NCBI GenBank assembly: GCA_049322915.1
Contig: JBMOPW010000020.1
Span: forward strand, 238,006-302,005
DNA: 64,000 nucleotides
Direction: 5' to 3'
DNA from: Candidatus Zhuqueibacterota bacterium
GTDB taxonomy: Bacteria; Zhuqueibacterota; Zhuqueibacteria; Thermofontimicrobiales; Thermofontimicrobiaceae
Shown: positions 30,237 to 50,469 of the stretch, piece after piece
Position numbering within the stretch: position 1 is the first letter of the stretch
How the letters are laid out: the number at the start of each line of letters is the position of its first letter
Notes under the pieces: model-generated
The model's input: the letters and a program-made list of their open reading frames with translations, nothing else
What the model was told of the DNA's origin: nothing
Database searches by the model: none
Made by a program: the position numbers and the translations under genes

Positions 30237-30420
30237 CAGTAATGCAATTCTGTGGGATGTCCGGGTGGGCTTGGAATGATGGTGTGTGCCCGGGAATAGT
30301 CATGCTACCACTTACCGTATATTTCCACTCCGTGCAATGATTATTATTTTCAAATCATTCCTGAATAAATTTTAATGTGCTGATACATCCGATAACCGCT
30401 AATGATTGGGAATACTGGCC

Positions 30421-33400
30421 ATGCAAGATGTTACAACCGTGAGATACAGCAATTTTCTGAAAGAGCAATCAGCGTTGAAACGAGTTTCGGAGCAACGCAA
30501 CGCCACTGAGCTTCTGTACCAGAGCGAGAAATTTCAATCAAATACTCCAGTCCAGAGTCTGCCTGGTTGGACGGAATTGCGGCAGAAGCTTTCCGAGGCA
30601 TCCGTCATTTTCTTTCCCAATGATGTGCAGCAGCAGACCTACACTGCGGATACCGGCACCCATATTGTCCCGTCCATCTTCAAGCGAATGCTGGTGAAAA
30701 TCAAGTTGTCCTTTGTATTTCGTCCCGGCTGTGTCGAAGATTTGAGCGTATTTGTGAAATGGGCGTATGAAAACAAGATTCATTACACCATTCGCGGCGC
30801 AGGCACCTGGCCGTTTGGGGGCTGTGTGCCCATCAACGGGGATGTTGTGGTTGATCTTTCTTACCTTGATTTTATGCACGTGGATGAGCGCGAGGGGATT
30901 TTCACATTCGGGGCCGGCGTCGTTTTCCCCAAGGCCAGGAAATTTTTACAGGAGCGGGAATTCACGTTAAAGCAGGAAATCACCAATCCTGGCAGCGGCA
31001 CCATTGCCGGCTGGTTGGCGACCGGCGGCATTGGACTCGGCAGCTACAAATACGGGCATGTCTCCAATTCCGTGCGCGCGCTGCTGGTCATTACCCCTGC
31101 GGGCGAATGCATCACCGTGGATCGGGACGACGCCAACTTCACCAGCTATTTCGGCAGCGAAGGCCAGTTCGGCATTATCGCCGGCGCATCCATGGAGGTG
31201 CGACGGGAATCCTACGTCACCAAGCCGTACGCGTTTTCCTTTACAAAATTCGAAGATGCGGTGCAGTTCATCCACATGCTTGAAAAAGCGCAACTGAAGC
31301 CCACTTCGGTCATTTACTTCAGCGACACCTACATTGCCGAGACGTATAAAATCGAGAAGCGCCACGTCGAAGAGCGACTGAATGAAGCGCTGGACAATAA
31401 CGACCAGACGCGTTTGCGCGAGACGCGCGAAGACCGCGATACCATCGAGGCGATGAAGCAGTACCAGCATGTCGTCGTCATCCATTTTGATGAAAACAGC
31501 GATTACCAATTCGCTTTGAAGTCGCGCCTGTTTGGCAAGAGCGGCGAATTGCGCCGCGCGAGTCATATCAGCTATTTGCAACTGCCCACTGACCTGGCGC
31601 ATATATTCTGGGATCACCGATTTCTGCCGGTGCAGCTTAAAGTCAACGGGCCGACTGTCCTTGTGAGTGAATTCGTGTTGCCGTTGGCGGCGTTTTCGAA
31701 TTTTCAAAACACGCTGCAAAAGGTGCTGGCTCGCTTGCTGAATATCGAGTTGAAGTCGGAAGCGCATCTTCTTCAAGACGGCGAAGTGTTGACGCAAGCC
31801 ATGTTCCTGGCTGACACGCGGACGTTTCGGCACAAGCTCTATTTTTCGCTAATTCCGCTGATGACGCAGGTCGGCTATTATTTTGGCGCCAGGCCGTACG
31901 GGATCGGTCTGTGGAATTATCCCTCATTGAGGCGGTGGCGAAGCGTGAACCGGGAGAAGGCCGATGCCATGATGGCGTTCAAAAAGGAATCGGATCCGCG
32001 CGGTCACATCAACCAGGGTAAATTCATCAATCCCCGGCGGCAGACGTTGGCGTTCAAGCTGTTCAAAATTATCACTCCCCGTTTCAACCAATGGTTCGTC
32101 GCCACCTACGATAAACGGATTCAGCAGAAAAAATTCGTCCTCACCTTCCCATTTCAGAAGTTGGTGTGGAATATCACCCGATTCATTTTCCCGCGAATGG
32201 TGCCGCCGGGGTTGAAAGCCGGAGAGCATGAACCCATCGAACGGATGATTTCAGTTTGCGCCGAATGCGACTCGTGCGAACGGGTCTGTCCGACTTCGGA
32301 TGTGTTCGGACTTTACGGCCCGGCCACGCCGATCACCCGCCGCCGCACAGCGCAGCGCTTGATTGCCGGAGAGAAAATCAGTCGGAATGAGGCGCTGGGA
32401 TTCCTCGCCTGCACCCGCTGCGACAATTGCACCGACATTTGTCCAACCAACATCAACCTCACGCAGGTGTTCGATCTGGTGGAAATGAATCCAAAGTTCA
32501 ACGCCCAGTTGAATTTCAGGAACGGTGAAAAGAAGGAGTATATCGATCGGTTCTGGCAGATCATGAAAGAGAGTCCGCTGTACATCGAACATACGCTGGC
32601 CGTTCAGAAAGAAGAGAAATCGCATCTGGCTCACGGGCTGAAAATTCTGTACGACAAAGGATTTGCCTACAGCGAATTGTACATCGATCCGACCACCTGT
32701 ATCCATTGCGGCATGTGCAGCAACGAAAACGCCTGCATGTACGCTGCCAGAGAAAGCCAGCCACGTCAGATTCCTGAACTGCGCCACATCAACTGCGCGC
32801 TGTGCAATGCCTGCGTTAATTTCTGTCCCCAGAACAAAATCATGGAGCGCACCCGGCTGTATTTCGATAAATTGATCCATCATGCCGTTGATCTGGAAGA
32901 GAAACGCTACTGGACCAAACAGCAGGCGCGGGTGCACGATACAACCACGGTGCAGCGGTCCACGCTGCTCACAGAAATGGCCGACCGCTACGTGACGGAA
33001 GAAATTATCATGGAAATTGATAAAGAGGCGTCCACCGGCAAAATCCCGGTTTCAGGATCGGGTCAGGGCGACCGGCACATGGGCATCGGCTTCGACGCCG
33101 AGCGGTTCGCTCATTTTCACATCGTGGGGCCGGCGCAAAACCGTCTGCACGAGGGCGATCCGGCAGAGGAACTGGCGGTGATTCTGGGCAAGCGGGAAGA
33201 TTTCTGCAAGTTTGACCGGGATGGCAATCTGGTGAATCCCGTGCATGCCAATATCAAATTGATGACGCCGATTTTATACAACGCCATCCCGCTGGAGAGC
33301 AACGGCAATGTGGAACTGGTTCTCATCAAAGTGGCGGAACAGCAGAAAAGCCTTGTGGTGATTCAATTGGAGCGGCTGCTGGAACACCATCAGGAAATCC

Positions 33401-36400
33401 TGAAAAATGGCGGGTATGCGCGCCTGCCCCAGGTGATTGTTCCGAGGGTGGGCAGCGATCTGATCAATCTGCTGACTGTCCACCAAAACACGAGCCGCGA
33501 TTTCATCACAGATCTGTGGCGCATGCCGGTGTTCGAGGTGGAATACCATCCGGACATCGAGCAGACCATCAGCTACATCCGCGGTTGCGTCGCCAGCAGC
33601 GAGAAAGTGCGGGCGCTGATCAGCGGGTATCTGGAAATTTCCGAGTACGACCTCATCGGCTCACTGAGTCTGACAGCGGATATCAAAGAGAAAGTGAACC
33701 ACTTCCTCGACCAGAAAGTGGATATAGTGCACATCCGCGGGCTGAGAAATAAAGACGAGTACTTTGTAACGTCCCGCGCAGTTCGCGCGCTGCATCATTA
33801 TCTGATGCGAATTGGCCGGCGGCATGAAGTGAGCATCATTGCATCGGGCGGAATACGGCTGGCATCGGACACGCAAAAGACAATTCAGCGCGGGGCTGAG
33901 GCCACGTTGATCGATTTCGCGGCACTGTTGGCGCTGGATCCTTCGACCTATCGCGCAATGATTGAGAATAAATCCACCACGGAAAAATTATTGAGCCTGG
34001 ATGTGGATTGGGCAGTGAAAAGGCTGCTCAACCAGGCTGAATCGCGCAAAGTGCAAATCCTTGAAGTGCTGGGCGCTGCCGGGTTCAAAGACCTGAAAAA
34101 GACGGTGGGCGAGGAAGGACGGCTCATCGATTTTCACAAACTGGAGAACAGAATTCAGCGGACGATTTTCGAAAATGAGCAACTCGTGGATGAGTATTCG
34201 ACCTGTAACGAGCAACTCATCAAAAATGAAACCATCCCGGAAACGCAGGTGCGCAGCTACAGCGTCCTGAAGACGAAACTGGCGCCCATGCCGGCGCCGC
34301 ACGATTTTTACAATCTCGGCGAAGTGAATCAGGTGCTGTACAAACGCGATTTTGTCTGGCCCGGGGCATTGATCGAATCCATGGGACGTATGGCAGCCGG
34401 GGACATGTCCATGCTCGATTTCAACAACGTGAAAAAGACCGGCCTGCTTGGCGATGGATTCGACGTCATGCGCATTTTGTACAACAAAGACCCGATGGAT
34501 ATTCACGAATCTGAATTGAACCAGATCTCCACTTCCTTGCTGCTGGACAAAGGCCTGATCCTCGAAGCGCCGTGGATGTTCGGTGGCAAATCCATCGGCT
34601 CCATCGGACTGGACACGTGGAAAGCGCACGTCACAGCGTCGCGGGAATTGGGCATTCAGTTCGACACCGGCGAGGGGGGCTATCCCACCAGCTTTTTCCT
34701 GAATTCGAAAGGCGAGCCGCTGTTCTTCACGGAGAATGAAATTCAACTCATCAAATCCTATTTCGAATCGGGCAGTGATTACACCATCGAGCAGATACAA
34801 AAGACGCTGGCAGAGAAGAAGATCACCGAAGAAAGCCATCCGGAATTGTACAAAAAACTGAAGCAATTTCCCTCGCTCAAGCCCTTCCGGTTTCTCGTCA
34901 TCGTCGATGAACAGGACCAGCCGTTCGTTTCGACTGAATTGAAAACCGGGCTGTTTGGCGTCACCAAGACTACGATTCAGAAAGCGCGGCGCGTGGTGAT
35001 TGCCTACAGTCAGGGCGCCAAGATGGGCATCGGCGGACACATCCTTGCGCAGAAGGTGAATAAACTGGTTTCGTACATGCGGGGGGTGGAAGGCATCGAA
35101 TACACCCACGCCGAGAAAGTGGAGCAGTTGTACCAGAAATTACAAAAAATCGCCTCGAAAAATGACCATCCGCTCCATGAACTGGCTGTTGCCAATCTGG
35201 ACATTTTCAACGCTATGGAAGACCAGCGGACTGCAACCGAAGCGTTCAAAAATGCGCTGTGGCAGATTCAGGAATATGCCTATAATCTCCATGCCCGCAA
35301 TGCGATTGATCCCATCGAATTCAAAAACATCCTGCAATTGTGCGAGGAGATCATCGACTACTCTTACAGCAGCATCATTTCGCCGTTCCCGTTTCACAAT
35401 TGTTATTCCATTGAAGATGTGAAAGCGTTCATCGATGTCGTGCGAATGATCAATCCGGAGGCGGTCATTGCCATCAAAGTGTCGCCGTCCATTGATATCG
35501 AATTCATTGCCACCGGACTGGGACGCATTGCGCGCGACAATACCGACGAAATTTTAGCCGCCAGATTCAACAAAACTCAGGCCGGATCGGACCCGTTGTC
35601 CGTCGAGATGGCCGAATATACCCGGAAATACGGAATGAAAATTGAAATCTGGCTGGATGGACCGCGCGGCGGCACCGGCGCGTCGCCCAATATCATCAAA
35701 GGTCAAATGGGCATGCATCTGGAATACGCCATTCCGCTGATTCACTATCGGCTTGTTAAAGACGGGCTGCGGAATTATGTCAAATTTATAGTCTCCGGCG
35801 GGATACGAACCTTTGAAGATGTGATCAAGGCTGTCGCCCTGGGCGCTGATGGTGTGGTCTGGGGAACGGCTCCGCTGGTGGCCATTGGCTGCGACCGAAA
35901 CCGGAACTGTCACGACGGCTGTTCGCGCGGCATTGCCACGAGCAATTTGAAGCTGCAACAACTGCGCGATGTGGCGGTTAACACGCAGCAAATCATCAAC
36001 GCGTTCACCATGATTCAGATGCAATGTATCCGCGCCATTGCCGCGCTGGGATTTTCCGACATCCGCGAGCTGCGCGGCCGGTTCGACAAAATTCATTGGC
36101 TGGGTCTCAAAGAACGGGTGGATCACCGCTATCGGGTGCGCGCTGAAGTGATTAAAGAGATTGAGAAGGACGAGCAGCTATTCGAGCAGCGCATGGCTCG
36201 CGCGACTGGCCAGAGCAATTGCGGCGTGGCGGCCATTAACGGCACGACGGCAATTCCCGGCTATATACTCGACCAGACGCTGCAATCGATGCGGAACCGC
36301 GGCATGGATGGCGTTGGCATTGCCAAAACGCTCTGTTTCCCGGACCATCCGAATGAATACGCCTATCGCATCCTGGTGAAGGGTCGGCTGCACCGGGATA

Positions 36401-39072
36401 TTGAATTTGAGCTGAGAAAATCGCAGGACGGAAAGAATGAGGCGATGGATGAAAATGAACTGCGGACGCTCGCCCGCGAAAGAACCGTCGCCCTGCGAAT
36501 CAGCCTGATGCGCAAAATCAAGTCGATTTATCTCGATCCCTATTTCGATTATTTCGGCCAGGACGATGTGACACGGTGTCGCGAGCCGTACAAAGTCAAC
36601 GAGCAGAGCGCAGAGAGGGACTATCGGGAGTTTGGAAATGCCAATACTGATCCCGGCGATGTCTTTCGTTTCTTCGTACGGGTGAAACCGGCGGCGCTGT
36701 ACCATTTCATCGAAAATGAACTGCTCCGCGGCGGCAAGCCGCGATTGCTGGAGCACCTGTTCCCGGAGATAACGCCGAATAATTACCGGCAGAACGAGAC
36801 TTTTCTGAACAAGGCAGAGGATTTGTTCATCCTGCAGCACTCGCACAATGTGACGCGGATTCTCTATGTGTCGTCGGTGCTGCCTGATGAATTGGAAAAG
36901 TTCGCCGGCAAGAAGATCGGTCTGAAGCGCATTTCCGAAGCCGATGAGGAATACATTCTGGCGGATGTCCGCGATGAGGATTGCTCCGATTATCTTAAAC
37001 TGCTGCGTGATTTCATGCTAGCCCATCCGTTTGAACATCACAAGCATCGCTACGGGGTGCGTAATCATAAAATCGCGGCGGTGATGTCGTGCGGGAAGAA
37101 TTTCGCCGTGTGGAAGACAGCCGGCCGCGAAATACCTTGGCAGACGCCGGACGCTCCCAACAATATCATTCACGTGCGATTGGCCACCGGCTCGGTGGTC
37201 GAGCAGATGAATTCGCACCCGTTCGCCAAACTGCACACCGCGCTGACTCACAACGGCGAGACCACCAATTACGAGGCGCTGAAGCAGCGCGTGGAGCAAT
37301 TCAATCTATCGCCATTGGCCAGCACCGATACGGAGGTGGCTTCGTTGAAATTTCATCTCACCGCCGATGAATGGGAATACCCGGACTGGGCGTTGTTCGA
37401 AAGTTTCTCGCCTACCACCGGCGATGATTTGCAATTGGTGGACGAAAAGATCAGGCCGCAGTTGGAGCAGGTGCAGCGTGTGGAATTCACCAGTTCCCCG
37501 GATGGCCCGTATCAATACCTGTGCCTGCGCCACAATCCCTACACCCGGGTGACCGAGCGCGTGGATTTGAAAGACCCGGCGGACCTGCGTCCCAATGTGA
37601 CCGCATTCTGGAGCGATCAATCCAACGGCCAACGGCGCGTCTTCAGCATCATCGCTTCGGAAGAACAGGCCATCAACACCATGCTGCGACTGCTGGATAA
37701 AGAGGGCATCATTCAGGGGAGCGTTGCAGATTTGACCTTTGTGAACGCCGGCATGATCAGCCGCTATTGGTACGACGAAGCCAATCGGATCACGGATTTC
37801 CGTTTCGTCGACCGCTACGGTCGCGCCATTCAACTGGAAAATAGCGGCATGCATCACAGTGTGCGCCAGGGAAAACCGTTGCCGACGCAGGGAAAAGACA
37901 CCCATGCTGGCTGGCAGAATCGCTATCAGCAGTTTTTCAGGGACAATCTGGCTGCCATGACGTTCGATGAGTTCCGCTGGCTGCTGCATCAGCAGTCCAA
38001 CGAAAACGCGGACAATGCCGCCTTTGCGCGCACCCTGGAAATTTTCACCTGGCTTCGCGATTATCTTCGCACGCTGAATCCCGGAGAAAAGGCGCAGAGT
38101 TCGCTCATCGACATCACGCAGTATTACATCGACGCGCTGCTGGATAGGGCGAAGGAATCGGTTTACAGCAATTATGTCTGGTGCAGCCGGGAGTCGGCAT
38201 TGCAATTCAACACGCGGGCTGGCGAGGGCCAGACACTGGTGATCAATGCCGGGAAATTTCTGCCGGAGGGCACAGACCCGGCAGTCTCGCTGACCGCATT
38301 TCTGTCAAAAGCCCACCGCCTGGGCTGGCGCAAATTCATCCTGTACAATACAACAGGTCAGCGGCTCATTTCAACGGCGGCGCTGCACGGAGGTGATTCG
38401 GACGATGTGGTCATGGATGTGTACGGCTCTGTCGGCGAATACTTTGGCGCGTTCATGCAGGGCGGCATTCTGCGATTGCACGGCAACGCACAGAACTTCG
38501 CCGCCATGTGCATGCATCACGGCGAATTGTACATTTTTGGCAATGCCGGCAAAGTGTGCGGCTACGCATCCAAAGGCGGCAAGGTCGTTGTTCTCGGCAA
38601 TGTCGTGGATCGCTGCTGGACCAACTCGGTGAACGATTCGCGCTGTCAGGATCTGGACGTGATGATTTTGGGTTCCGCGACAAAGTACGCCGGCGAGTCT
38701 CTCATGGGCGGTAAATTTTTCTTTGCCGGACTTCATTTCGATGTGAAAGGCAATTTATGCTTCAACGAGCGGCCCTACCTGGGCACGAAAATGCTCGGCG
38801 GCGCTTCACGCGGCGATTTCATTTTCTTCGATCCTGAAAATCGGCTCATCCACGCGCAGTACGTCCACGGCGCAGAGAAGCAGTTCACCATTGAGGAATG
38901 GCAGGCGTTCAAAGAAAAAGCCAAATCGGTCTTTCGTCTGTCCAATATCCCCATCCACGAGGCCGACGGCGTCGAATCCATTCAGGTGGGTGATCGCCGA
39001 TACGACCTCATCCCGGCGCACTTCAAATTTATCGTTCCCAGAGGCGGACTCCGCGGCTATGAGTCCCATTGA
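30421..39072 (+). CDS. gltB: Giant multidomain glutamate-synthase-related fusion: FAD-linked oxidoreductase + 4x[4Fe-4S] + two GltB FMN barrels + class II GATase + GXGXG domain
   Basis: One open frame (TTG 30406 is an alternative start). FAD_binding_4 motifs RGAGTWPFGG and GSEGQFGII; four CxxCxxC ferredoxin motifs; DTGEGG, QGAKMGIGGH, DGPRGGTGASP, SGGIRT, GCDRNRNCHDGC; CGVAA...RGMDG...HVRLAT...HPF...HNGE...TDTEV; GSVGEYFGAFMQGG repeats. Confidence 0.9.
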   Translation: MQDVTTVRYSNFLKEQSALKRVSEQRNATELLYQSEKFQSNTPVQSLPGWTELRQKLSEASVIFFPNDVQQQTYTADTGTHIVPSIFKRMLVKIKLSFVFRPGCVEDLSVFVKWAYENKIHYTIRGAGTWPFGGCVPINGDVVVDLSYLDFMHVDEREGIFTFGAGVVFPKARKFLQEREFTLKQEITNPGSGTIAGWLATGGIGLGSYKYGHVSNSVRALLVITPAGECITVDRDDANFTSYFGSEGQFGIIAGASMEVRRESYVTKPYAFSFTKFEDAVQFIHMLEKAQLKPTSVIYFSDTYIAETYKIEKRHVEERLNEALDNNDQTRLRETREDRDTIEAMKQYQHVVVIHFDENSDYQFALKSRLFGKSGELRRASHISYLQLPTDLAHIFWDHRFLPVQLKVNGPTVLVSEFVLPLAAFSNFQNTLQKVLARLLNIELKSEAHLLQDGEVLTQAMFLADTRTFRHKLYFSLIPLMTQVGYYFGARPYGIGLWNYPSLRRWRSVNREKADAMMAFKKESDPRGHINQGKFINPRRQTLAFKLFKIITPRFNQWFVATYDKRIQQKKFVLTFPFQKLVWNITRFIFPRMVPPGLKAGEHEPIERMISVCAECDSCERVCPTSDVFGLYGPATPITRRRTAQRLIAGEKISRNEALGFLACTRCDNCTDICPTNINLTQVFDLVEMNPKFNAQLNFRNGEKKEYIDRFWQIMKESPLYIEHTLAVQKEEKSHLAHGLKILYDKGFAYSELYIDPTTCIHCGMCSNENACMYAARESQPRQIPELRHINCALCNACVNFCPQNKIMERTRLYFDKLIHHAVDLEEKRYWTKQQARVHDTTTVQRSTLLTEMADRYVTEEIIMEIDKEASTGKIPVSGSGQGDRHMGIGFDAERFAHFHIVGPAQNRLHEGDPAEELAVILGKREDFCKFDRDGNLVNPVHANIKLMTPILYNAIPLESNGNVELVLIKVAEQQKSLVVIQLERLLEHHQEILKNGGYARLPQVIVPRVGSDLINLLTVHQNTSRDFITDLWRMPVFEVEYHPDIEQTISYIRGCVASSEKVRALISGYLEISEYDLIGSLSLTADIKEKVNHFLDQKVDIVHIRGLRNKDEYFVTSRAVRALHHYLMRIGRRHEVSIIASGGIRLASDTQKTIQRGAEATLIDFAALLALDPSTYRAMIENKSTTEKLLSLDVDWAVKRLLNQAESRKVQILEVLGAAGFKDLKKTVGEEGRLIDFHKLENRIQRTIFENEQLVDEYSTCNEQLIKNETIPETQVRSYSVLKTKLAPMPAPHDFYNLGEVNQVLYKRDFVWPGALIESMGRMAAGDMSMLDFNNVKKTGLLGDGFDVMRILYNKDPMDIHESELNQISTSLLLDKGLILEAPWMFGGKSIGSIGLDTWKAHVTASRELGIQFDTGEGGYPTSFFLNSKGEPLFFTENEIQLIKSYFESGSDYTIEQIQKTLAEKKITEESHPELYKKLKQFPSLKPFRFLVIVDEQDQPFVSTELKTGLFGVTKTTIQKARRVVIAYSQGAKMGIGGHILAQKVNKLVSYMRGVEGIEYTHAEKVEQLYQKLQKIASKNDHPLHELAVANLDIFNAMEDQRTATEAFKNALWQIQEYAYNLHARNAIDPIEFKNILQLCEEIIDYSYSSIISPFPFHNCYSIEDVKAFIDVVRMINPEAVIAIKVSPSIDIEFIATGLGRIARDNTDEILAARFNKTQAGSDPLSVEMAEYTRKYGMKIEIWLDGPRGGTGASPNIIKGQMGMHLEYAIPLIHYRLVKDGLRNYVKFIVSGGIRTFEDVIKAVALGADGVVWGTAPLVAIGCDRNRNCHDGCSRGIATSNLKLQQLRDVAVNTQQIINAFTMIQMQCIRAIAALGFSDIRELRGRFDKIHWLGLKERVDHRYRVRAEVIKEIEKDEQLFEQRMARATGQSNCGVAAINGTTAIPGYILDQTLQSMRNRGMDGVGIAKTLCFPDHPNEYAYRILVKGRLHRDIEFELRKSQDGKNEAMDENELRTLARERTVALRISLMRKIKSIYLDPYFDYFGQDDVTRCREPYKVNEQSAERDYREFGNANTDPGDVFRFFVRVKPAALYHFIENELLRGGKPRLLEHLFPEITPNNYRQNETFLNKAEDLFILQHSHNVTRILYVSSVLPDELEKFAGKKIGLKRISEADEEYILADVRDEDCSDYLKLLRDFMLAHPFEHHKHRYGVRNHKIAAVMSCGKNFAVWKTAGREIPWQTPDAPNNIIHVRLATGSVVEQMNSHPFAKLHTALTHNGETTNYEALKQRVEQFNLSPLASTDTEVASLKFHLTADEWEYPDWALFESFSPTTGDDLQLVDEKIRPQLEQVQRVEFTSSPDGPYQYLCLRHNPYTRVTERVDLKDPADLRPNVTAFWSDQSNGQRRVFSIIASEEQAINTMLRLLDKEGIIQGSVADLTFVNAGMISRYWYDEANRITDFRFVDRYGRAIQLENSGMHHSVRQGKPLPTQGKDTHAGWQNRYQQFFRDNLAAMTFDEFRWLLHQQSNENADNAAFARTLEIFTWLRDYLRTLNPGEKAQSSLIDITQYYIDALLDRAKESVYSNYVWCSRESALQFNTRAGEGQTLVINAGKFLPEGTDPAVSLTAFLSKAHRLGWRKFILYNTTGQRLISTAALHGGDSDDVVMDVYGSVGEYFGAFMQGGILRLHGNAQNFAAMCMHHGELYIFGNAGKVCGYASKGGKVVVLGNVVDRCWTNSVNDSRCQDLDVMILGSATKYAGESLMGGKFFFAGLHFDVKGNLCFNERPYLGTKMLGGASRGDFIFFDPENRLIHAQYVHGAEKQFTIEEWQAFKEKAKSVFRLSNIPIHEADGVESIQVGDRRYDLIPAHFKFIVPRGGLRGYESH

Positions 39073-44649: not shown

Positions 44650-44728
44650 TTTAACGAACAACAACAGTCCCAGTGGGATGTGTTGAAGAAAAGCAATGAA
44701 TCATTCGCTTCGAAAAGTGAGGTTCACT

Positions 44729-47197
44729 ATGAAAACAAAACCCTGGCAGACGGTAATCCTCTGTGGGATCGTTCTTTTTAGCTTCACCTCGTTGAGCGTG
44801 TCACAGATTCCGGTCACAATTCCTGATGATGTGGAGACCGAGTTTGGGACGTACCATCCAATTCCGGTCCAATTCACCCCGCAAGTTCCTGAGTTTCAGC
44901 TCGAGTCTGATTTCAGCAATGTCACCAATTATAATTCTCTCGGCTGGTGGTTCAACGCGACCGACATGAGTCTGCTGCTGGACAATCATTTTACGGTGAA
45001 AAAAAGCCAGTACAAGCAACTTTACGAAGTGTACAATGCCTGCACCTGGGACGGAACCCCGATATTCGTCACAGCCGATGCGGTGCTGCATACCTATCAT
45101 GTGCTGTTCGATTATTTTCTCTCCGAAATTGAGGCTCGGAAATTCGTGGCTGCGTTGAGCGAATTGACCGATGCGATGATCCTCAACATTGAGGCCGATT
45201 ACCCGCAGCTCATGACAGCGCAGGCCCGGGATGCGGCTTTGTCCAACCTGGCCTATTTCTATGTCGCCCGAAAATTGCTTTCCCCTGATGATGCGGCGCC
45301 GGCGGAGATCGCAGATGTGGTGGATGCGGAATTAGCCCTCATCGATGCGCACGAAGGCTTTTCTTTCTCCCCGATTTTTGGGGAATTCTCCAAACTGGAT
45401 TATAGCCAATTCAAACCGCGCGGGCATTACACGAAAAGCGAAACGCTTCAGGTTTATTTCAAAACCATGATGTGGTACGGCTGGACTATTTTCACGATGG
45501 AACCTCAACTGTTCGGCGAAATTGCAGCGCGGCATTCACTCCAGGCGCTGCTGATGGTTCAGGATATCTATACGCTGCAGGGAGCAGAAGCGTCGCTTGA
45601 AACGCTGTGGGACTCCATTTACGAACCGACTGTGTTTTTCGTGGGCAGAACCGATGATCCGAACATCCGCGATTATCGCATCCTTGGGGAGCAGATTTAT
45701 GGCGATAATTTTCTGACCCTTTCCGGGGATAGCCTGGCCAATGCCCACCTGCTGGATGCGTTCATGGCGCAGGCGCAGACGCTGCCTGAGCCAAAAATAC
45801 CCAACTGGATTCATGGCGCTTTTATCACGTACAAGGGATTCCGCTTCATGGGTCAGCGATTCATCCCTGACTCGTACTGGATGGCGCATCTCATCGATCC
45901 GTATGTTAGGTCCCGCTATTTCCCCAAAGGACTCGACGTACTGGCAATTTTAGGTTCGGCCCGCGCGTGCGCCTTGATGGATTCAGTCTACCACGAAACG
46001 AGTCCTGGCTACGCTGAAAAAATCGCCGAGTTTCGAGCCGAACTGATGGCGCTGAATCCGGAACAGTGGGCGCAGAACCTGTATTGGAACTGGCTCTATT
46101 GTCTGCTGCCGTTGCTCGGAGAGAAAGGCGCCGGCTACCCATTGTTCATGCAGACGCTGGCCTGGGCCGATAAAGAGTTGCTCACCGCTCTGGCGTCCTG
46201 GGCAGAACTCAGGCACGATACCATCCTCTATGCAAAACAAAGTATGACTCCCTGCGGTACAACGCCCGGTACACCAAAAAGCTACGTCGAACCCAATCCA
46301 CTTCTTTATGCGCGGCTGGCCAGTCTGGTCCAGTTCACAAAGGATGGATTGAGTTCAAGAAATCTTCTCCTGGATGGCTTCGACGTCAGACTGGATTCAT
46401 TTGAGAGGCTGCTCTTATTTTTGAAGGACATTTCGATCAAAGAATTGGAAAGCATACCGCTGACAGACACAGATTATGAAAATATTTTCTGCTTCGGATC
46501 GGTGATGCAAGACCTGGTATCTGTGACGTTAGACCCGAATAATCCCTTCAACAGGGACGTCGACGACATGGCCGTCGTGGCCGATGTGCATACCGATTCC
46601 AACAGCGAACAATGCCTGGAAGAAGGCGTGGGCTATCCGCTGGAAATTTATGTCATCGTCAACGAAGGCGGGGACATTCGGTTGACGCGCGGAGCGATTT
46701 TTTCTTACTACGAATTCACTCAGCCCATCGCCGATCGATTGACCGATGAAAAATGGCGACAGATGCTCGTCAGCGATGCTCCGCCCAAAATGCCGGAGTG
46801 GGTATCCGGCTTTGTGAACGTGAATGAGGAGCAGCCCGAGTACTCCGAATTTTCCCCGGGTAACCTGTTCAATCATCTGTTTCTAAGCGTGGAGCGCATC
46901 CATCGAGAAGTGAAGCCGAAGACCACTCAACTCCTGACGAATTATCCAAATCCGTTCAACCCCCGGACGACGATTCAATATCAATTGGATAAAGCAGCGT
47001 TCGTCCGCCTGGAAATCTACAACATCAACGGGCATAGGATTCGCACATTGGTCAATGAAGTGCAGACGTCGGGGGTGTACGCGGTGCGCTGGGATGGACG
47101 GGATGAATCCGGGAGAGCCGTCGCCAGCGGCGTCTATTTCTGCGCGATGAAATCCGGCGACTATGCCAAAGCTAATAAACTGTTTCTATTGAGATAA
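44729..47197 (+). CDS. DUF3160 domain protein with T9SS C-terminal sorting domain
   Basis: GAGG RBS; signal peptide; PIFVTADAVLHTYH, DYSQFKPRGHYT, FRFMGQRFIPDSY, LASWAELRHDTILYAKQS, VADVHT, RGAIFSYYEF; C-terminal NYPNPFNP...ASGVYF. Confidence 0.9.
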   Translation: MKTKPWQTVILCGIVLFSFTSLSVSQIPVTIPDDVETEFGTYHPIPVQFTPQVPEFQLESDFSNVTNYNSLGWWFNATDMSLLLDNHFTVKKSQYKQLYEVYNACTWDGTPIFVTADAVLHTYHVLFDYFLSEIEARKFVAALSELTDAMILNIEADYPQLMTAQARDAALSNLAYFYVARKLLSPDDAAPAEIADVVDAELALIDAHEGFSFSPIFGEFSKLDYSQFKPRGHYTKSETLQVYFKTMMWYGWTIFTMEPQLFGEIAARHSLQALLMVQDIYTLQGAEASLETLWDSIYEPTVFFVGRTDDPNIRDYRILGEQIYGDNFLTLSGDSLANAHLLDAFMAQAQTLPEPKIPNWIHGAFITYKGFRFMGQRFIPDSYWMAHLIDPYVRSRYFPKGLDVLAILGSARACALMDSVYHETSPGYAEKIAEFRAELMALNPEQWAQNLYWNWLYCLLPLLGEKGAGYPLFMQTLAWADKELLTALASWAELRHDTILYAKQSMTPCGTTPGTPKSYVEPNPLLYARLASLVQFTKDGLSSRNLLLDGFDVRLDSFERLLLFLKDISIKELESIPLTDTDYENIFCFGSVMQDLVSVTLDPNNPFNRDVDDMAVVADVHTDSNSEQCLEEGVGYPLEIYVIVNEGGDIRLTRGAIFSYYEFTQPIADRLTDEKWRQMLVSDAPPKMPEWVSGFVNVNEEQPEYSEFSPGNLFNHLFLSVERIHREVKPKTTQLLTNYPNPFNPRTTIQYQLDKAAFVRLEIYNINGHRIRTLVNEVQTSGVYAVRWDGRDESGRAVASGVYFCAMKSGDYAKANKLFLLR

Positions 47198-47222
47198 ATT
47201 TTAAACGGAAAGGTGAACGACC

Positions 47223-48449
47223 ATGTTGAAATTAAAATGGCTCATTATTGCTGCACTGACGATTGGTATGTTTGGTCGCTGTTCGAAAACGCCCACGACG
47301 CCGGACACAACACTGCCCCGCGAATTGACGTCTGCTGAAAAGTCGATTGTCGAATCGGACAACAAATTCGGCCTGAAGCTATTTCGCCAGATCAACACAG
47401 AAGAGGGCGCGAAGAATATTTTCATCTCACCGCTGAGCGTTTCCATGGCCCTGGGTATGACGCTGAATGGCGCTCATGGCAGCACGTACGACGCCATGCG
47501 GGCCACGCTCGAATACGAGGGATTGACTGAAGAGCAAATCAATAAATCCTATCACGATTTGATGGAATTACTACTCGGTCTGGATCCTGAAGTTGTGTTA
47601 CAGATAGCCAATTCCATCTGGTATCGGAACACGTACACGTTTCGGGAGACTTTCATCAATACGAACAAACAGTATTTTGACGCCGAGGTGGCCGGATTGA
47701 ATTTCGATGATCCGGCGTCCGTGAATGTCATCAATGGCTGGGTGAATCAGAGCACCAATGGCAAAATCACCGAAATCATCGACAGCATCCATCCGGCCAC
47801 CGTGATGTTTCTCATCAACGCCATTTATTTCAAAGGAACCTGGACCTACCAGTTCGAAGAAAAAGATACATACGATGGCTATTTCACGCTGCCGGATAAT
47901 TCGCAGCAAAACTGCAAGATGATGCGCCAGGCCAATGAATTCAATTATTTCAACGATGAACAGATTCAGGCTGTGGAACTGCCTTACGGCGATGGATTGT
48001 TCAGCATGATCTTGATGCTGCCGAAACAGGACGTGGACATCGAGGCGCTGATTAAAAACTTAGATCAGACCGCCTGGGATAGCTGGCTGGGTAAATTGAC
48101 CAAGCAAAATGGCACCGTTCACCTGCCTCGGTTCAAGCTGGAATATGAAATCAAAATGAACGACGCGCTGACAGCGCTGGGCATGGGGATTGCATTTTCA
48201 GATTTGGCTGATTTCACCAGCATGTACGAACCGGGTGGATTGTTCATCAGTCAGGTGAAACATAAATCGTTCGTGGAAGTTAATGAAGAGGGGACAGAGG
48301 CGTCGGCTGTGACCATTGTCGAAATTCGGGAGACTATGGCCACTGACGAATTCAATCTGGTTGTCAATCGTCCGTTCATTTTTGCCATTCGGGAGAATCA
48401 TTCCGGCAGCATTTTGTTCATCGGTAAAATTGTGAACCCGAATTCGTGA
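47223..48449 (+). CDS. Serpin (serine protease inhibitor) family lipoprotein
   Basis: Lipobox-like FGRC; NIFISPLSVS, INGWVNQSTNGKI, LINAIYFKGTW, LPRFKLE, hinge EVNEEGTEASAVT, NRPFIFAIRE..SGSILFIGKIVNP. Confidence 0.95.
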   Translation: MLKLKWLIIAALTIGMFGRCSKTPTTPDTTLPRELTSAEKSIVESDNKFGLKLFRQINTEEGAKNIFISPLSVSMALGMTLNGAHGSTYDAMRATLEYEGLTEEQINKSYHDLMELLLGLDPEVVLQIANSIWYRNTYTFRETFINTNKQYFDAEVAGLNFDDPASVNVINGWVNQSTNGKITEIIDSIHPATVMFLINAIYFKGTWTYQFEEKDTYDGYFTLPDNSQQNCKMMRQANEFNYFNDEQIQAVELPYGDGLFSMILMLPKQDVDIEALIKNLDQTAWDSWLGKLTKQNGTVHLPRFKLEYEIKMNDALTALGMGIAFSDLADFTSMYEPGGLFISQVKHKSFVEVNEEGTEASAVTIVEIRETMATDEFNLVVNRPFIFAIRENHSGSILFIGKIVNPNS

Positions 48450-48457
48450 GGAAGAAT

Positions 48458-48883
48458 ATGAGACGAGTCCTCTGGTTGCCGGGAATACTCCTGGCCCTGC
48501 TGGCGTGCGCCGGGGAAAATGCTCTGGACAGCCTGGCGCTACAGGAAAATCGATATAGCTACAGCGGCTACGATTCCACCGGCGTAAAAATAGTCCAGGG
48601 CTGGATTGAATTTCAGACCACTGATAGCTCCACGGTCGTCGGGCAATGGGAATTGAGTCCTGTGGGCAATCCACAACAGATTGGTCCCCAGACCGGCAGC
48701 GGGGAACTATCAGGTGGCCAGGTAGATGGCCGAATTTACATGGATTTAAATCCGACCTATCGCGATAACAATGTGGTGCTCGAGGCCGATTACAACCGGG
48801 AGAAACTGGACGGAGAATGGAGTTATATCGGTTTCCCGGGCGTCCTCAATCGCGGAAGTTTCAAGGCAGTGAGAGAGCGGTAG
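48458..48883 (+). CDS. Hypothetical lipoprotein (small beta-rich)
   Basis: GAGG RBS; lipobox LLAC. Confidence 0.7.
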   Translation: MRRVLWLPGILLALLACAGENALDSLALQENRYSYSGYDSTGVKIVQGWIEFQTTDSSTVVGQWELSPVGNPQQIGPQTGSGELSGGQVDGRIYMDLNPTYRDNNVVLEADYNREKLDGEWSYIGFPGVLNRGSFKAVRER

Positions 48884-48906
48884 TGTCTGACGAATGGAGG
48901 CGTGAC

Positions 48907-50469
48907 ATGAAAATGCCCGATCTTTTTTTGTTCCTGTTCATTTTACTTTTTCACAGTCTGTTTCCGGCTACAGCAATTCCTCATGAGATGCCGATGTTTT
49001 GCCACGAGTTTCGCGTCGGCGGCGGGGCCCGTCCGGATGTGGCGTCGCTGCCGAACGGAAATATCGTCATTTGTTGGGAAGGTGGAAACGGTCATGTTCT
49101 GGCCAGGATATTTGATCGAAACGGCGTGCCGGTCACGGATAACTTTCAGGCCAGTGCAACGCCGTCGGATGAACATCCTGAGCCCCGAATTGCCAGTCAA
49201 ACCAATGGCAATTTCCTGATTTGCTGGGAAGTTTATAAGGAAGCGGAAAACAAAAATTCCGATGTCTATGGTCAGTTCTTCTCTCAGGATGGTTCTCCGC
49301 TCGGTCCTGAATTCATTGCTTGCTCCAACCCTGTGGAGAATTGGTCACAGCGGGAATGCGATGTCGTCGCCTTGAATAACGGTGACTTCATCGTGGTCTG
49401 GATGAGCTACTACGAGGATAGCTTCCAGGGTGGCATTTTTGGACAGCGATTTACCAGCAGTGGAGAGACGGTGGGCGCGCAGTTTCAACTCAATTCATTC
49501 CCTGAAGAAGCGGACGAAAGAGCGCCAAATGTCACCAGCTTTGGGGAGTCCGGCTTTGGCGCTGTTTGGTTTCGCGGGTGGTTCGATTTCGGGCCGGATA
49601 TAAGCCATGAGGAAATCGCCATTCAACGGTTCAATGCCAGAAATGAGTGCATGTGGACTGAAAAAACAGTGTGCGGCGAGCAATTGGGGACAGATAGGCG
49701 ACATGCAGTGACAGCGTTGCACGATAGCACGTTTGTCGTATGCTGGAGTAACTGGAGCGGTTTGTATCAGGAAACGGTCTGGGCGCGAAAATACGATAGA
49801 GATGGGATTGCACTGGCAGCGCCATTTCGGGTGAACACCGCGCTCACTGCGATGGCGCTTGAACTTTCCATTGCCACCCTGAACAGTGGTGATTTCGTCA
49901 TCTGCTGGAGGCATCATACTCCGGCCATTGAGGACGGTGAGCAAGTGACGCATCTTGAAATCCACGGGCAAATTTTCAATGAAGCGGCAGAAAAGGTGGG
50001 CGAAGAATTTAAGGTAAACTCAATTTCCGGCCAATCGCTGAGGCATAATTATCCTTCGGTGATTGCTCACGGCGACAGCGGATTTGTCGTTGTCTGGATG
50101 GAAAAATGGGAGACAGTGTATGGCAAAGTTTTTTCCACAGATTCCATCAATGTCCGGGTTGAAGAAGAGCCGCCTTTGCCGGAAGATTTTGAATTGCATC
50201 TGAATTTTCCCAATCCGTTTCACGAAATAACGACCATTCCATACGCCCTGCCGGAGCGAGCGCACTGGTATTACGTGAAAATCCGAATCTACAATTCCCT
50301 GGGTGCTCAAATCAAAACGCTGCGTCGGGAGTATCAAAACGGGGGACGATATTCCATCGAATGGGACGGAAGGGATTCACACGGTACTCTGGTCGCCAAT
50401 GGCGTTTACTTCTGTCAATTTGATGTGAACGGTGCGGTGAAGACTTCCAAACTGATTTTTGTGAAGTGA
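48907..50469 (+). CDS. Secreted repeat (probable beta-propeller) protein with T9SS sorting domain, paralog A
   Basis: GGAGG RBS; signal peptide; about 7 repeats of P.VA.LxNGxF(V/I)xW...GQxFxxxG; C-terminal NFPNPFH...ANGVYF. Confidence 0.82.
   Translation: MKMPDLFLFLFILLFHSLFPATAIPHEMPMFCHEFRVGGGARPDVASLPNGNIVICWEGGNGHVLARIFDRNGVPVTDNFQASATPSDEHPEPRIASQTNGNFLICWEVYKEAENKNSDVYGQFFSQDGSPLGPEFIACSNPVENWSQRECDVVALNNGDFIVVWMSYYEDSFQGGIFGQRFTSSGETVGAQFQLNSFPEEADERAPNVTSFGESGFGAVWFRGWFDFGPDISHEEIAIQRFNARNECMWTEKTVCGEQLGTDRRHAVTALHDSTFVVCWSNWSGLYQETVWARKYDRDGIALAAPFRVNTALTAMALELSIATLNSGDFVICWRHHTPAIEDGEQVTHLEIHGQIFNEAAEKVGEEFKVNSISGQSLRHNYPSVIAHGDSGFVVVWMEKWETVYGKVFSTDSINVRVEEEPPLPEDFELHLNFPNPFHEITTIPYALPERAHWYYVKIRIYNSLGAQIKTLRREYQNGGRYSIEWDGRDSHGTLVANGVYFCQFDVNGAVKTSKLIFVK

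Follow-up and report, generated by a model that had tools for sequence, protein, structure and literature searches.

A 2,883-residue glutamate synthase-like fusion protein predicted to cut itself before a deeply buried amidotransferase cysteine

Background

Class II glutamine amidotransferases are textbook N-terminal-nucleophile (Ntn) enzymes, of which the known cases shed only a short propeptide. The window analysed here, a stretch of 64,000 nucleotides from a Candidatus Zhuqueibacterota bacterium (assembly GCA_049322915.1, contig JBMOPW010000020.1, positions 238,006 to 302,005 of the forward strand), encodes a protein of 2,883 residues, hereafter the giant, in which flavin and iron-sulfur (Fe-S) modules precede a domain of this class. 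The question raised by this locus is how such an amidotransferase could work with its catalytic Cys so far from the N-terminus. The original prediction, made from the letters of the window, had offered two answers: a self-cleavage in which the whole N-terminal two-thirds acts as a giant propeptide, or a silent glutaminase. Since the Cys is buried 1,933 residues deep, the giant probably must cut itself in two to become active, a self-splitting which is predicted here from sequence comparisons and which, on such a scale, would be a first for class II amidotransferases. The Ntn amidotransferase, the removal of a propeptide and the modules of glutamate synthase (GltS) are known elements; new are the way in which they are combined here and the size of the predicted self-cleavage.

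Results and discussion

A single uninterrupted gene with permuted glutamate synthase modules

The giant is encoded by one + strand open reading frame (ORF) which runs without interruption from an ATG at 30421 to 39072. An alternative TTG start at 30406, with the same stop at 39072, gives 2,888 residues, and the catalytic Cys is accordingly residue 1939 when counted from the TTG and residue 1934 when counted from the ATG. The database copy of the protein (P0002) has the identical 2,883 residues and starts at the ATG at 30421. Pfam and PDB searches gave the domain order LctD/GlcD-like flavin adenine dinucleotide (FAD) dehydrogenase, Fe-S, central-like barrel, flavin mononucleotide (FMN)/synthase barrel, class II amidotransferase and GXGXG. 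The features are as follows, operon genes 1 and 2 being those of the split operon of free-standing relatives:

30421..39072, + strand: whole gene, 2,883 residues from the ATG (2,888 from the TTG at 30406), identical to P0002, frame continuous in thirteen related loci
30712..31119, + strand: FAD_binding_4 core of the LctD/GlcD-like module (PF01565, 92.8 bits, residues 103-238)
32257..32829, + strand: two ferredoxin-type 4Fe-4S dicluster segments (Fer4 families; residues 616-683 and 760-811)
32698..34182, + strand: Fer4 and GltS central-domain-like barrel, equivalent to operon gene 1 (residues 765-1259; blastp to gene 1 of loci L039 and L088, E 5e-29 and 3e-23)
34348..36102, + strand: FMN/synthase barrel, equivalent to operon gene 2 (residues ~1315-1899; PF01645, GltS chains and blastp to gene 2)
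36103..36219, + strand: linker or pro-segment (residues 1900-1938), conserved at its start (ERV..R.R) and at its end (T-G-Q-S-N) and of variable length in between
36217..36222, + strand: predicted scissile bond Asn1938-Cys1939 (AAT TGC), with N or D at -1 and an invariant Cys in aligned homologs, and with synonymous codon variation and no start codon at -3 to -1 over 22 giant loci
36220..37779, + strand: class II (Ntn-type) glutamine amidotransferase domain (residues 1939 to ~2458; GATase_6, GlmS/PurF matches and hhalign)
38386..38721, + strand: core of the GXGXG beta-helix domain (residues 2661-2772; PF01493), the domain continuing to the C-terminus

The LctD/GlcD-like FAD dehydrogenase module spans residues ~60-540, and positions 94-537 of the family profile matched LctD (7qh2_C) at E 1.9e-32. 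The Fer4 Cys motifs lie at residues 618-629, 669-680, 765-777 and 797-808. The first GltS-type barrel gave a weak Glu_synthase match (24.7 bits, residues ~1125-1226) and scored 12.5-17 bits with Glu_syn_central, under the cut-off of 22.8, the homologous operon gene 1 reaching 26.9 bits. The second barrel matched PF01645 with 201.7-213 bits and the large chains of GltS (7mfm, 1llw, 1ea0) at E 1e-40; it contains the Cys motif GCDRNRNCHDGC at 35887-35922. The GXGXG domain scored with PF01493 36.7 bits as an isolated piece, 33.9 in the genome search and 30.7 in the whole protein (cut-off 32.5, the last value being below it), and it matched FwdC (5t5i) at E 1e-9 as well as residues 1297-1414 of GltS (1llw).

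A divergent class II amidotransferase with an invariant glutamine site

The buried catalytic Cys reported in the original prediction is confirmed: it is encoded by TGC at 36220-36222, in the context ...RMARATGQSN-CGVAAING. All the amidotransferase motifs reported along with it were found as well, namely RNRGMDG (36292-36312, residues 1963-1969), HVRLAT (37171-37188, residues 2256-2261), HPF (37216-37224, residues 2271-2273), HNGE (37249-37260, residues 2282-2285) and TDTEV (37324-37338, residues 2307-2311).

A homolog search with residues 1880-2888 retrieved 215 proteins at E <= 0.001 among 5,979 candidates of 1,588-5,054 residues. The conservation counts given here refer to the last 1,150 residues of the best 120 of these 215, aligned after P0002 had been left out as identical to the window. 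The 120 homologs are mostly 2,500-2,950 residues long, carry the same Pfam set and are 39-78% identical overall; their sources include Calditrichota, KSB1, Gemmatimonadota, Krumholzibacteria and Syntrophaceae, and the members of the cluster all come from uncultured organisms. At the junction C, G, V, A and A are each found in 120/120, with the consensus [ST][ND]-CGVAA and the predicted cut before the Cys. Ser occupies position -2 in 89 of the sequences, Thr in 30 and Ala in one, and position -1 holds Asn in 78 and Asp in 42 (SN-C and SD-C giants below). Seventeen motif positions, including those aligned with the catalytic residues of GlmS and PurF, are each invariant in the 120 sequences: C1939, G1940, N1964-R1965-G1966, H2256, R2258, T2261, H2271-P2272-F2273, H2282-N2283-G2284 and T2307-D2308-T2309. 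The same residues remain invariant in a 21-row alignment which includes free-standing relatives. Among them R1965, R2258, N2283-G2284 and D2308, which align with the 67-128 segment of GlmS, form the presumed glutamine site, the roles of which (Arg after strand 1, Arg of H-x-R, Asn-Gly oxyanion pair, Asp of TDTE) we assign after GlmS and PurF.

GATase_6 (PF13522) scored 31.1 bits on the whole protein and 33.4 on the isolated piece (cut-off 27), the matching part being the central 60 residues only, and the PDB search aligned the window protein with GlmS residues 67-128, 2j6h being among the GlmS matches. A profile built from giants and free-standing relatives (A2) gave two colinear stretches on both PurF (6lbp) and GlmS (1xff). 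The central stretch is significant (1e-6 with 1xff, 8e-5 with 6lbp), and the N-terminal stretch, weak by itself, sets the Cys against Cys1 of E. coli GlmS (position 1 of the 1xff chain) and against the Cys of EE-CGVVG in the plant PurF 6lbp. Aligned by hhalign with a profile of nine canonical GltB glutaminase domains, the giant's domain matched at E 4.2e-4 over 186 columns, with a probability of 34%, pairing H-x-R-x-x-T, [HQ]PF, HNGE, PDGP with WDGP, LRP with GLRPARY, and ASE with ASE; only weak colinear matches were obtained against the single sequence of E. coli GltB, or between a giants-only profile and GltB. Feature hits in the ESM Atlas ('putative glutamate synthase', 0.88; class II amidotransferase clusters) are leads only. 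Because GATase_6, GlmS/PurF and GltB (hhalign) matches were all obtained while PF00310 was not, the domain is assigned, on sequence comparison, as a divergent, GltB-like class II amidotransferase. An insertion of ~290 residues separates its NRG (R1965) and H-x-R (H2256) motifs (window 36310-37170, residues 1970-2255). Within it SN-C giants have ~70 extra residues (A2 columns ~405-475) which are missing in SD-C giants and free-standing proteins.

These data bear on the second answer of the original prediction, a glutaminase that is silent or regulatory, free ammonia being used and the domain serving as a scaffold or glutamine sensor. An uncleaved Cys would indeed be expected to be inactive in a class II amidotransferase. 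A scaffold, however, would not need the seventeen motif positions lying in and around the glutamine site, which are 120/120 across sequences down to 39% identity and also invariant when free-standing relatives are included; moreover glnA directly adjoins the giant upstream in the 3/3 scanned loci of the sister subfamily (SD-C). With the Cys and the glutamine-site residues invariant, this alternative is disfavoured and appears improbable.

A junction which is never split

A genome scan gave 80 loci, 21 of which are giants containing the junction. The frame is open over 1,665-1,993 codons 5' of the Cys in 13 of these, six are cut by a contig edge and two are frameshifted elsewhere (L012 and L023, with breaks near residues 1833-1851 and 1140), so that the gene is split at the junction in 0/21 giant loci. 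Three more giant loci had no recognisable junction in the scan (L025 is cut, L030 fragmentary, L032 has Ns and frame changes). None of 38 shorter database fragments containing the junction begins at the Cys, which lies 35-697 residues inside them.

The original prediction also held that no Met codon directly precedes the Cys, and this stands: position -1 is Asn (AAT), and the closest ATG in frame, at 36193, is nine codons upstream and lacks conservation. Internal initiation was rejected, the last in-frame Met being unconserved and situated 6-75 codons 5' of the Cys across the 21 giant loci. In all of 73 loci (21 giant, 52 free-standing), positions -1 to -3 are free of start codons. The codon of the Asn at -1 is AAC in 9 and AAT in 8 giant loci, and in the free-standing loci the Glu at -3 is GAA in 34 and GAG in 17, with all four Gly codons in use. 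As these codons vary synonymously and none is a start codon, residues -3 to -1 are translated and selected as protein.

The buried Cys might still be absent from the real product if two genes had been merged by assembly or annotation, or if translation restarted in the linker. The ATG nine codons before the Cys, which is shared by the window and three close relatives (L009, L010, L027), would fit a restart; it is not conserved beyond them, though, and a protein started there would still carry nine residues before the Cys. As to a merger, thirteen independent assemblies have the same open frame, a 28.9-kb contig from the probable source run covers 35600-36900 with zero differences, and another study yielded a contig of 151 nt (36177-36327) which reads through the junction in frame and differs by one synonymous change. 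We regard an artefact or a restart as extremely improbable.

A linker matching the pro-segment of free-standing relatives

Among the 120 homologs three residues before the junction, W1898, R1904 and V1905, do not vary at all, and the E1903-R1904-V1905..R1908.R1910 segment is nearly invariant. Residues 1913-1933 are variable and rich in indels, the distance from W1898 to the Cys ranging from 29 to 52 residues, and positions -5 to -1 are conserved again. An exhaustive search of representatives gave 613 matches at E <= 0.001 and, taken together with the genome scan, brought out a free-standing family of ~850-920 residues composed of the amidotransferase and GXGXG domains, found in Bathyarchaeia, Heimdallarchaeota, Chloroflexota, Planctomycetota, Desulfobacterota and others. 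The free-standing loci with the junction read EGG-CGV in 52/52, behind a translated, in-frame N-terminal extension of ~25-40 residues, the first in-frame Met lying mostly 25-38 codons upstream and never adjoining the Cys.

In the 4/4 loci examined, the free-standing gene is preceded by a Fer4 + FMN-barrel gene. A Fer4 + central-like-barrel gene lies further upstream in L088, L039 and L049, and both barrel genes are fused in L035. This split GltS-type operon (L033-L088; Bathyarchaeia, Chloroflexota, Planctomycetota, Desulfobacterota and others) consists of gene 1 (Fer4 and central-like barrel), gene 2 (Fer4 and FMN barrel) and gene 3 (amidotransferase and GXGXG), in the order of the domains of the giant, on which blastp places them at residues 765-1259, ~1315-1899 and, from residue 8 of gene 3, 1911-2856. 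Since gene 2 ends at ~1899 and residue 8 of gene 3 falls at 1911, the linker of the giant (35-39 residues) corresponds in place and length to the pro-segment. The operon and the giant share modules, order, catalytic motifs and pro-segment length; the operon differs by its separate polypeptides, its EGG-C junction (SN-C in the giant) and the lack of a fused FAD dehydrogenase. No literature account of the fused family or of its split operon was found, subscription journals lying outside the coverage, and the three-gene operon appears undescribed. Archaea have ORFs for single GltS domains, according to an excerpt of PMC8097209.

The same domain order recurs in a second group of giants (P0127, P0223, P0373, P0374), where the junction reads [DG]A-CGVVSF at residue ~1,900-1,990. 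In an unrooted quick maximum-likelihood tree of the module (62 rows: 15 giants chosen from the 120, two DA-type giants, P0144 and 44 free-standing modules of >= 750 residues), SN-C and SD-C giants form one clade and the free-standing proteins another (support 100 each), and the DA-type giants join P0144 on a long branch with a weak support of 84. P0144 (3,152 residues) has another arrangement: the amidotransferase and GXGXG domains come first, after a 78-residue extension ending with EGG-C, and FAD_binding_4, FAD-oxidase_C and Glu_synthase lie in its C-terminal part. It is a singleton from a single 60.7-kb contig and may represent a chimeric assembly.

A variable linker of this kind is probably exposed, and a separate cellular protease could cut at or near the junction. 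Such a protease would, however, have to cut exactly before the Cys across Calditrichota, Thermodesulfobacteriota, Chloroflexota and Bathyarchaeia and in four -2/-1 contexts (SN, SD, DA, GG). No conserved protease gene was seen in the neighbourhood, which is kept only within the genus, and the family is classed as self-processing in PMC3207474 and PMC9140057. We give this explanation a low probability.

A cleaved two-chain precursor as the favoured mechanism

Given the invariant glutamine site, the glutamine synthetase-glutamate synthase (GS-GOGAT) setting, the residues translated before the Cys throughout, and a linker matching the ancestral pro-segment, a cleaved precursor is the best reading of these data. 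We favour on balance, with restrained confidence, that the giant is a gene fusion which kept the pro-segment and would cleave itself at the Asn/Cys bond into a redox chain of ~220 kDa and a glutaminase chain of 108 kDa that stay together. The comparative evidence in this way favours the self-cleavage branch of the original prediction. Its wording as a giant propeptide is misleading, since the pro-segment appears to be the linker of 35-39 residues; the 1,933 residues upstream would be a working redox chain, staying non-covalently attached, rather than a propeptide proper.

The giant would then be the precursor of a self-contained, glutamine-dependent glutamate synthase, arisen when a module of LctD/GlcD-like FAD dehydrogenase and Fe-S domains was joined to all three genes of the split GltS operon, with the order of the operon kept. 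The third of these genes would already have had a pro-segment of ~35 residues before the catalytic Cys, retained by the fusion as the linker; as the Cys of the ancestral subunit needed to be freed in any case, fusing other genes upstream would have cost nothing. After folding, the thiol of Cys1939 would attack the Asn1938-Cys1939 bond in an N-to-S acyl shift, a chemistry which we infer from Ntn precursors, possibly assisted by the Asn or Asp at -1. The cleavage would free the alpha-amino group which is the general base of class II amidotransferases, and would yield an alpha chain of ~220 kDa with FAD, Fe-S and FMN and a beta chain of ~108 kDa with the glutaminase and GXGXG. If the chains stay associated, the ammonia released from glutamine could reach 2-oxoglutarate at the FMN site.

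The main rival is that the chain stays whole, the Cys acting as nucleophile from inside the chain, together with a different general base, while the pro-segment or linker is a permanent structural element in free-standing subunits and giant alike. Several observations fit this rival and weigh against a cleaved precursor. The pro-segment of the free-standing proteins is conserved in length, with its first Met mostly 25-38 codons before the Cys, and carries ~20-25 residues before EGG-C a recurring [IL][IL]xSR[RK]xL-like motif, in archaea and bacteria (L033-L088); it may itself be functional, for example in docking or in a delay of activation, and could even be retained, the clade then working with a non-terminal Cys. 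In the giants, the linker likewise begins with a nearly invariant segment (E1903 to R1910). No natural variant begins with M-CGV, either among the database fragments or in the 73 loci, so that the need for a free N-terminus lacks a natural test. Finally, the domain is very divergent from the studied amidotransferases: PF00310 (GATase_2) is absent from the giant with E up to 0.1, and from the genome search, and the similarity of the N-terminal strand is weak by itself (i-E 350 with 1xff, 2.2 with 6lbp, 0.057 against GltB). On the other side, all studied class II amidotransferases use the free amino group of Cys1, which is established knowledge and is stated in PMC9140057. Conserved pro-segments are equally normal in cleaved precursors, and the -1 residue of this clade, which is small or Asn/Asp (G, A, N, D), is similar to that of N-extended canonical GltB, where S, G or N stands in front of the Cys. 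We consider a chain that stays whole to be unlikely.

A more far-reaching proposal is possible but doubtful as a whole: that the giant is a single-polypeptide glutamate synthase of 328 kDa fed by a D-2-hydroxy acid (e.g. D-lactate) through its LctD-like FAD and Fe-S modules, instead of NAD(P)H or ferredoxin, that it splits itself at Asn/Cys, and that the self-removing pro-segment allowed the fusion of the operon in at least two lineages (SN/SD-C and DA-C). The D-2-hydroxy acid is here proposed from the similarity of the domain. The fused LctD-like module would in that case point to an electron donor new for the glutamate synthase reaction.

Physiological setting

The genome to which the window belongs is 96% complete and contains glnA and a nicotinamide adenine dinucleotide (NAD)-type glutamate dehydrogenase of 952 residues. 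It gave no GATase_2 hit and no GXGXG protein besides the giant, and its strong Glu_synthase matches fall only inside the giant. In the same family, PF00310 was above cut-off in 0/13 relatives, and the C-terminal module of the giant was found whole or in large pieces in 6/13 and as small fragments in 3/13. As no canonical GltB was found in its own genome and family relatives, the giant may be their only glutamate synthase. The two are not mutually exclusive, three genomes of a sister family in the same order holding both a canonical PF00310 protein and a giant.

In each of the three SD-C loci with upstream DNA that were scanned, glnA immediately precedes the giant and shares its strand (L029 3440-4846, L026 2998-4326, L024 1437-2873), and in L029 the giant is followed by carA-carB. 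No glnA was found among the one or two flanking ORFs scanned at each SN-C locus.

A second redox cluster of the same genome (G000:C14:642000-660000, L008) comprises a NuoF-GltD fusion of 1,021 residues, a Fer2/Fer4 protein and a partial Glu_synthase-like protein of 525 residues, with the 952-residue NAD-type glutamate dehydrogenase nearby. It has no amidotransferase or GXGXG partner, and its two unknown neighbours are unlike one.

Genomic surroundings

Downstream of the giant, a pair formed by a histidine kinase and a sigma-54 regulator is conserved only in L009, from the same genus, and no regulatory link is claimed on that account. Further downstream (window 44696-50469) are genes for a serpin and for two proteins with sorting tails, one a DUF3160 protein whose tail is of the type IX secretion kind, the other with an FlgD-Ig domain. 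These point to an organism of the FCB-group type. Transfer RNA (tRNA) and Rfam scans of the window gave no match, and promoter and terminator scans gave background level only.

In a related genus (L089 = G008:C45 1-7000; L090 and L091 = G013:C95 and C151), pieces of 60-125 residues of the amidotransferase core are repeated 4-6 times with a spacing of ~1.5 kb. They correspond to residues ~2177-2300 of the giant, to which they are 76-86% identical, and alternate with cassette-like genes (Fic, BrnT + CopG antitoxin, DUF4160 + DUF2442, AAA_14 + DUF4143), in genomes where the first 1,933 residues of the giant are missing. The arrangement resembles a cassette array or tandem integrated elements with a captured gene fragment as boundary repeat. 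Many metagenome 'proteins' of ~100 residues which are 85-98% identical to the same segment are probably such repeats.

Comparison with known enzymes

If these relationships are correct, several hundred proteins named "FAD-binding protein" or "glutamate synthase-related protein", from Calditrichota, KSB1, Thermodesulfobacteriota and others, become recognisable as probable glutamate synthases. The GltB subunit (E. coli; A. brasilense 1ea0/2vdc; B. subtilis 7mfm; Synechocystis 1llw) shares with the giant the FMN barrel, the GXGXG domain, an extended glutaminase and a Cys preceded by residues which have to be removed, tens of them in GltB as opposed to 1,933 in the giant. The removal of the GltB propeptide may be autocatalytic or due to a protease. 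E. coli GltB starts with MLYDKSLERDN before CGFG, i.e. RDN-CG, and eight canonical GltB genes from relatives in the same order or class encode 21-30 or more residues before the Cys, ending with EHDS in four, EHDG in two, EHDN in one and RGN in one. Residues translated before the Cys are a feature of all 73 loci of the relatives and of these nine canonical genes. The reductase subunit GltD is replaced in the giant by the fused LctD/GlcD-like FAD and Fer4 domains. GltB has the order glutaminase, central, FMN and GXGXG according to the sections of PMC8097209 which also give the domain limits of GltS and its ammonia tunnel of ~30 angstrom, whereas the giant is permuted, with both barrels before the glutaminase.

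Class II amidotransferases (MEROPS C44) are described in PMC9140057 as having a few residues before the Cys, which are autocatalytically cleaved, and the precursor of phosphoribosyl pyrophosphate (PRPP) amidotransferase is listed in PMC3207474 among the Ntn precursors cleaving in cis. The PurF precursor is thus like the giant a class II Ntn protein, with a Cys exposed by autocatalytic removal of a propeptide. It differs in that its propeptide consists of a few residues and is discarded, whereas the N-terminal product of the giant would be a working chain of 220 kDa.

A closer parallel for the proposed fate of the two chains is offered by penicillin G acylase, gamma-glutamyltranspeptidase and glycosylasparaginase, which PMC3207474 lists among the Ntn precursors cleaving themselves in cis. 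In these, autoproteolysis at the nucleophile gives alpha and beta chains that stay together. These two-chain enzymes belong to other Ntn families, have Ser or Thr nucleophiles and are hydrolases, not amidotransferases. Their alpha chains are also far smaller and are not known to hold independent catalytic modules. Should the cleavage prove true, the leaving part would be a catalytic chain of 220 kDa, and the giant would be a clear example of a biosynthetic amidotransferase whose two chains arise from a single precursor, in the style of penicillin acylase. The rule which we offer from this comparison is that Ntn domains may get inside fusions only if they are already self-processing.

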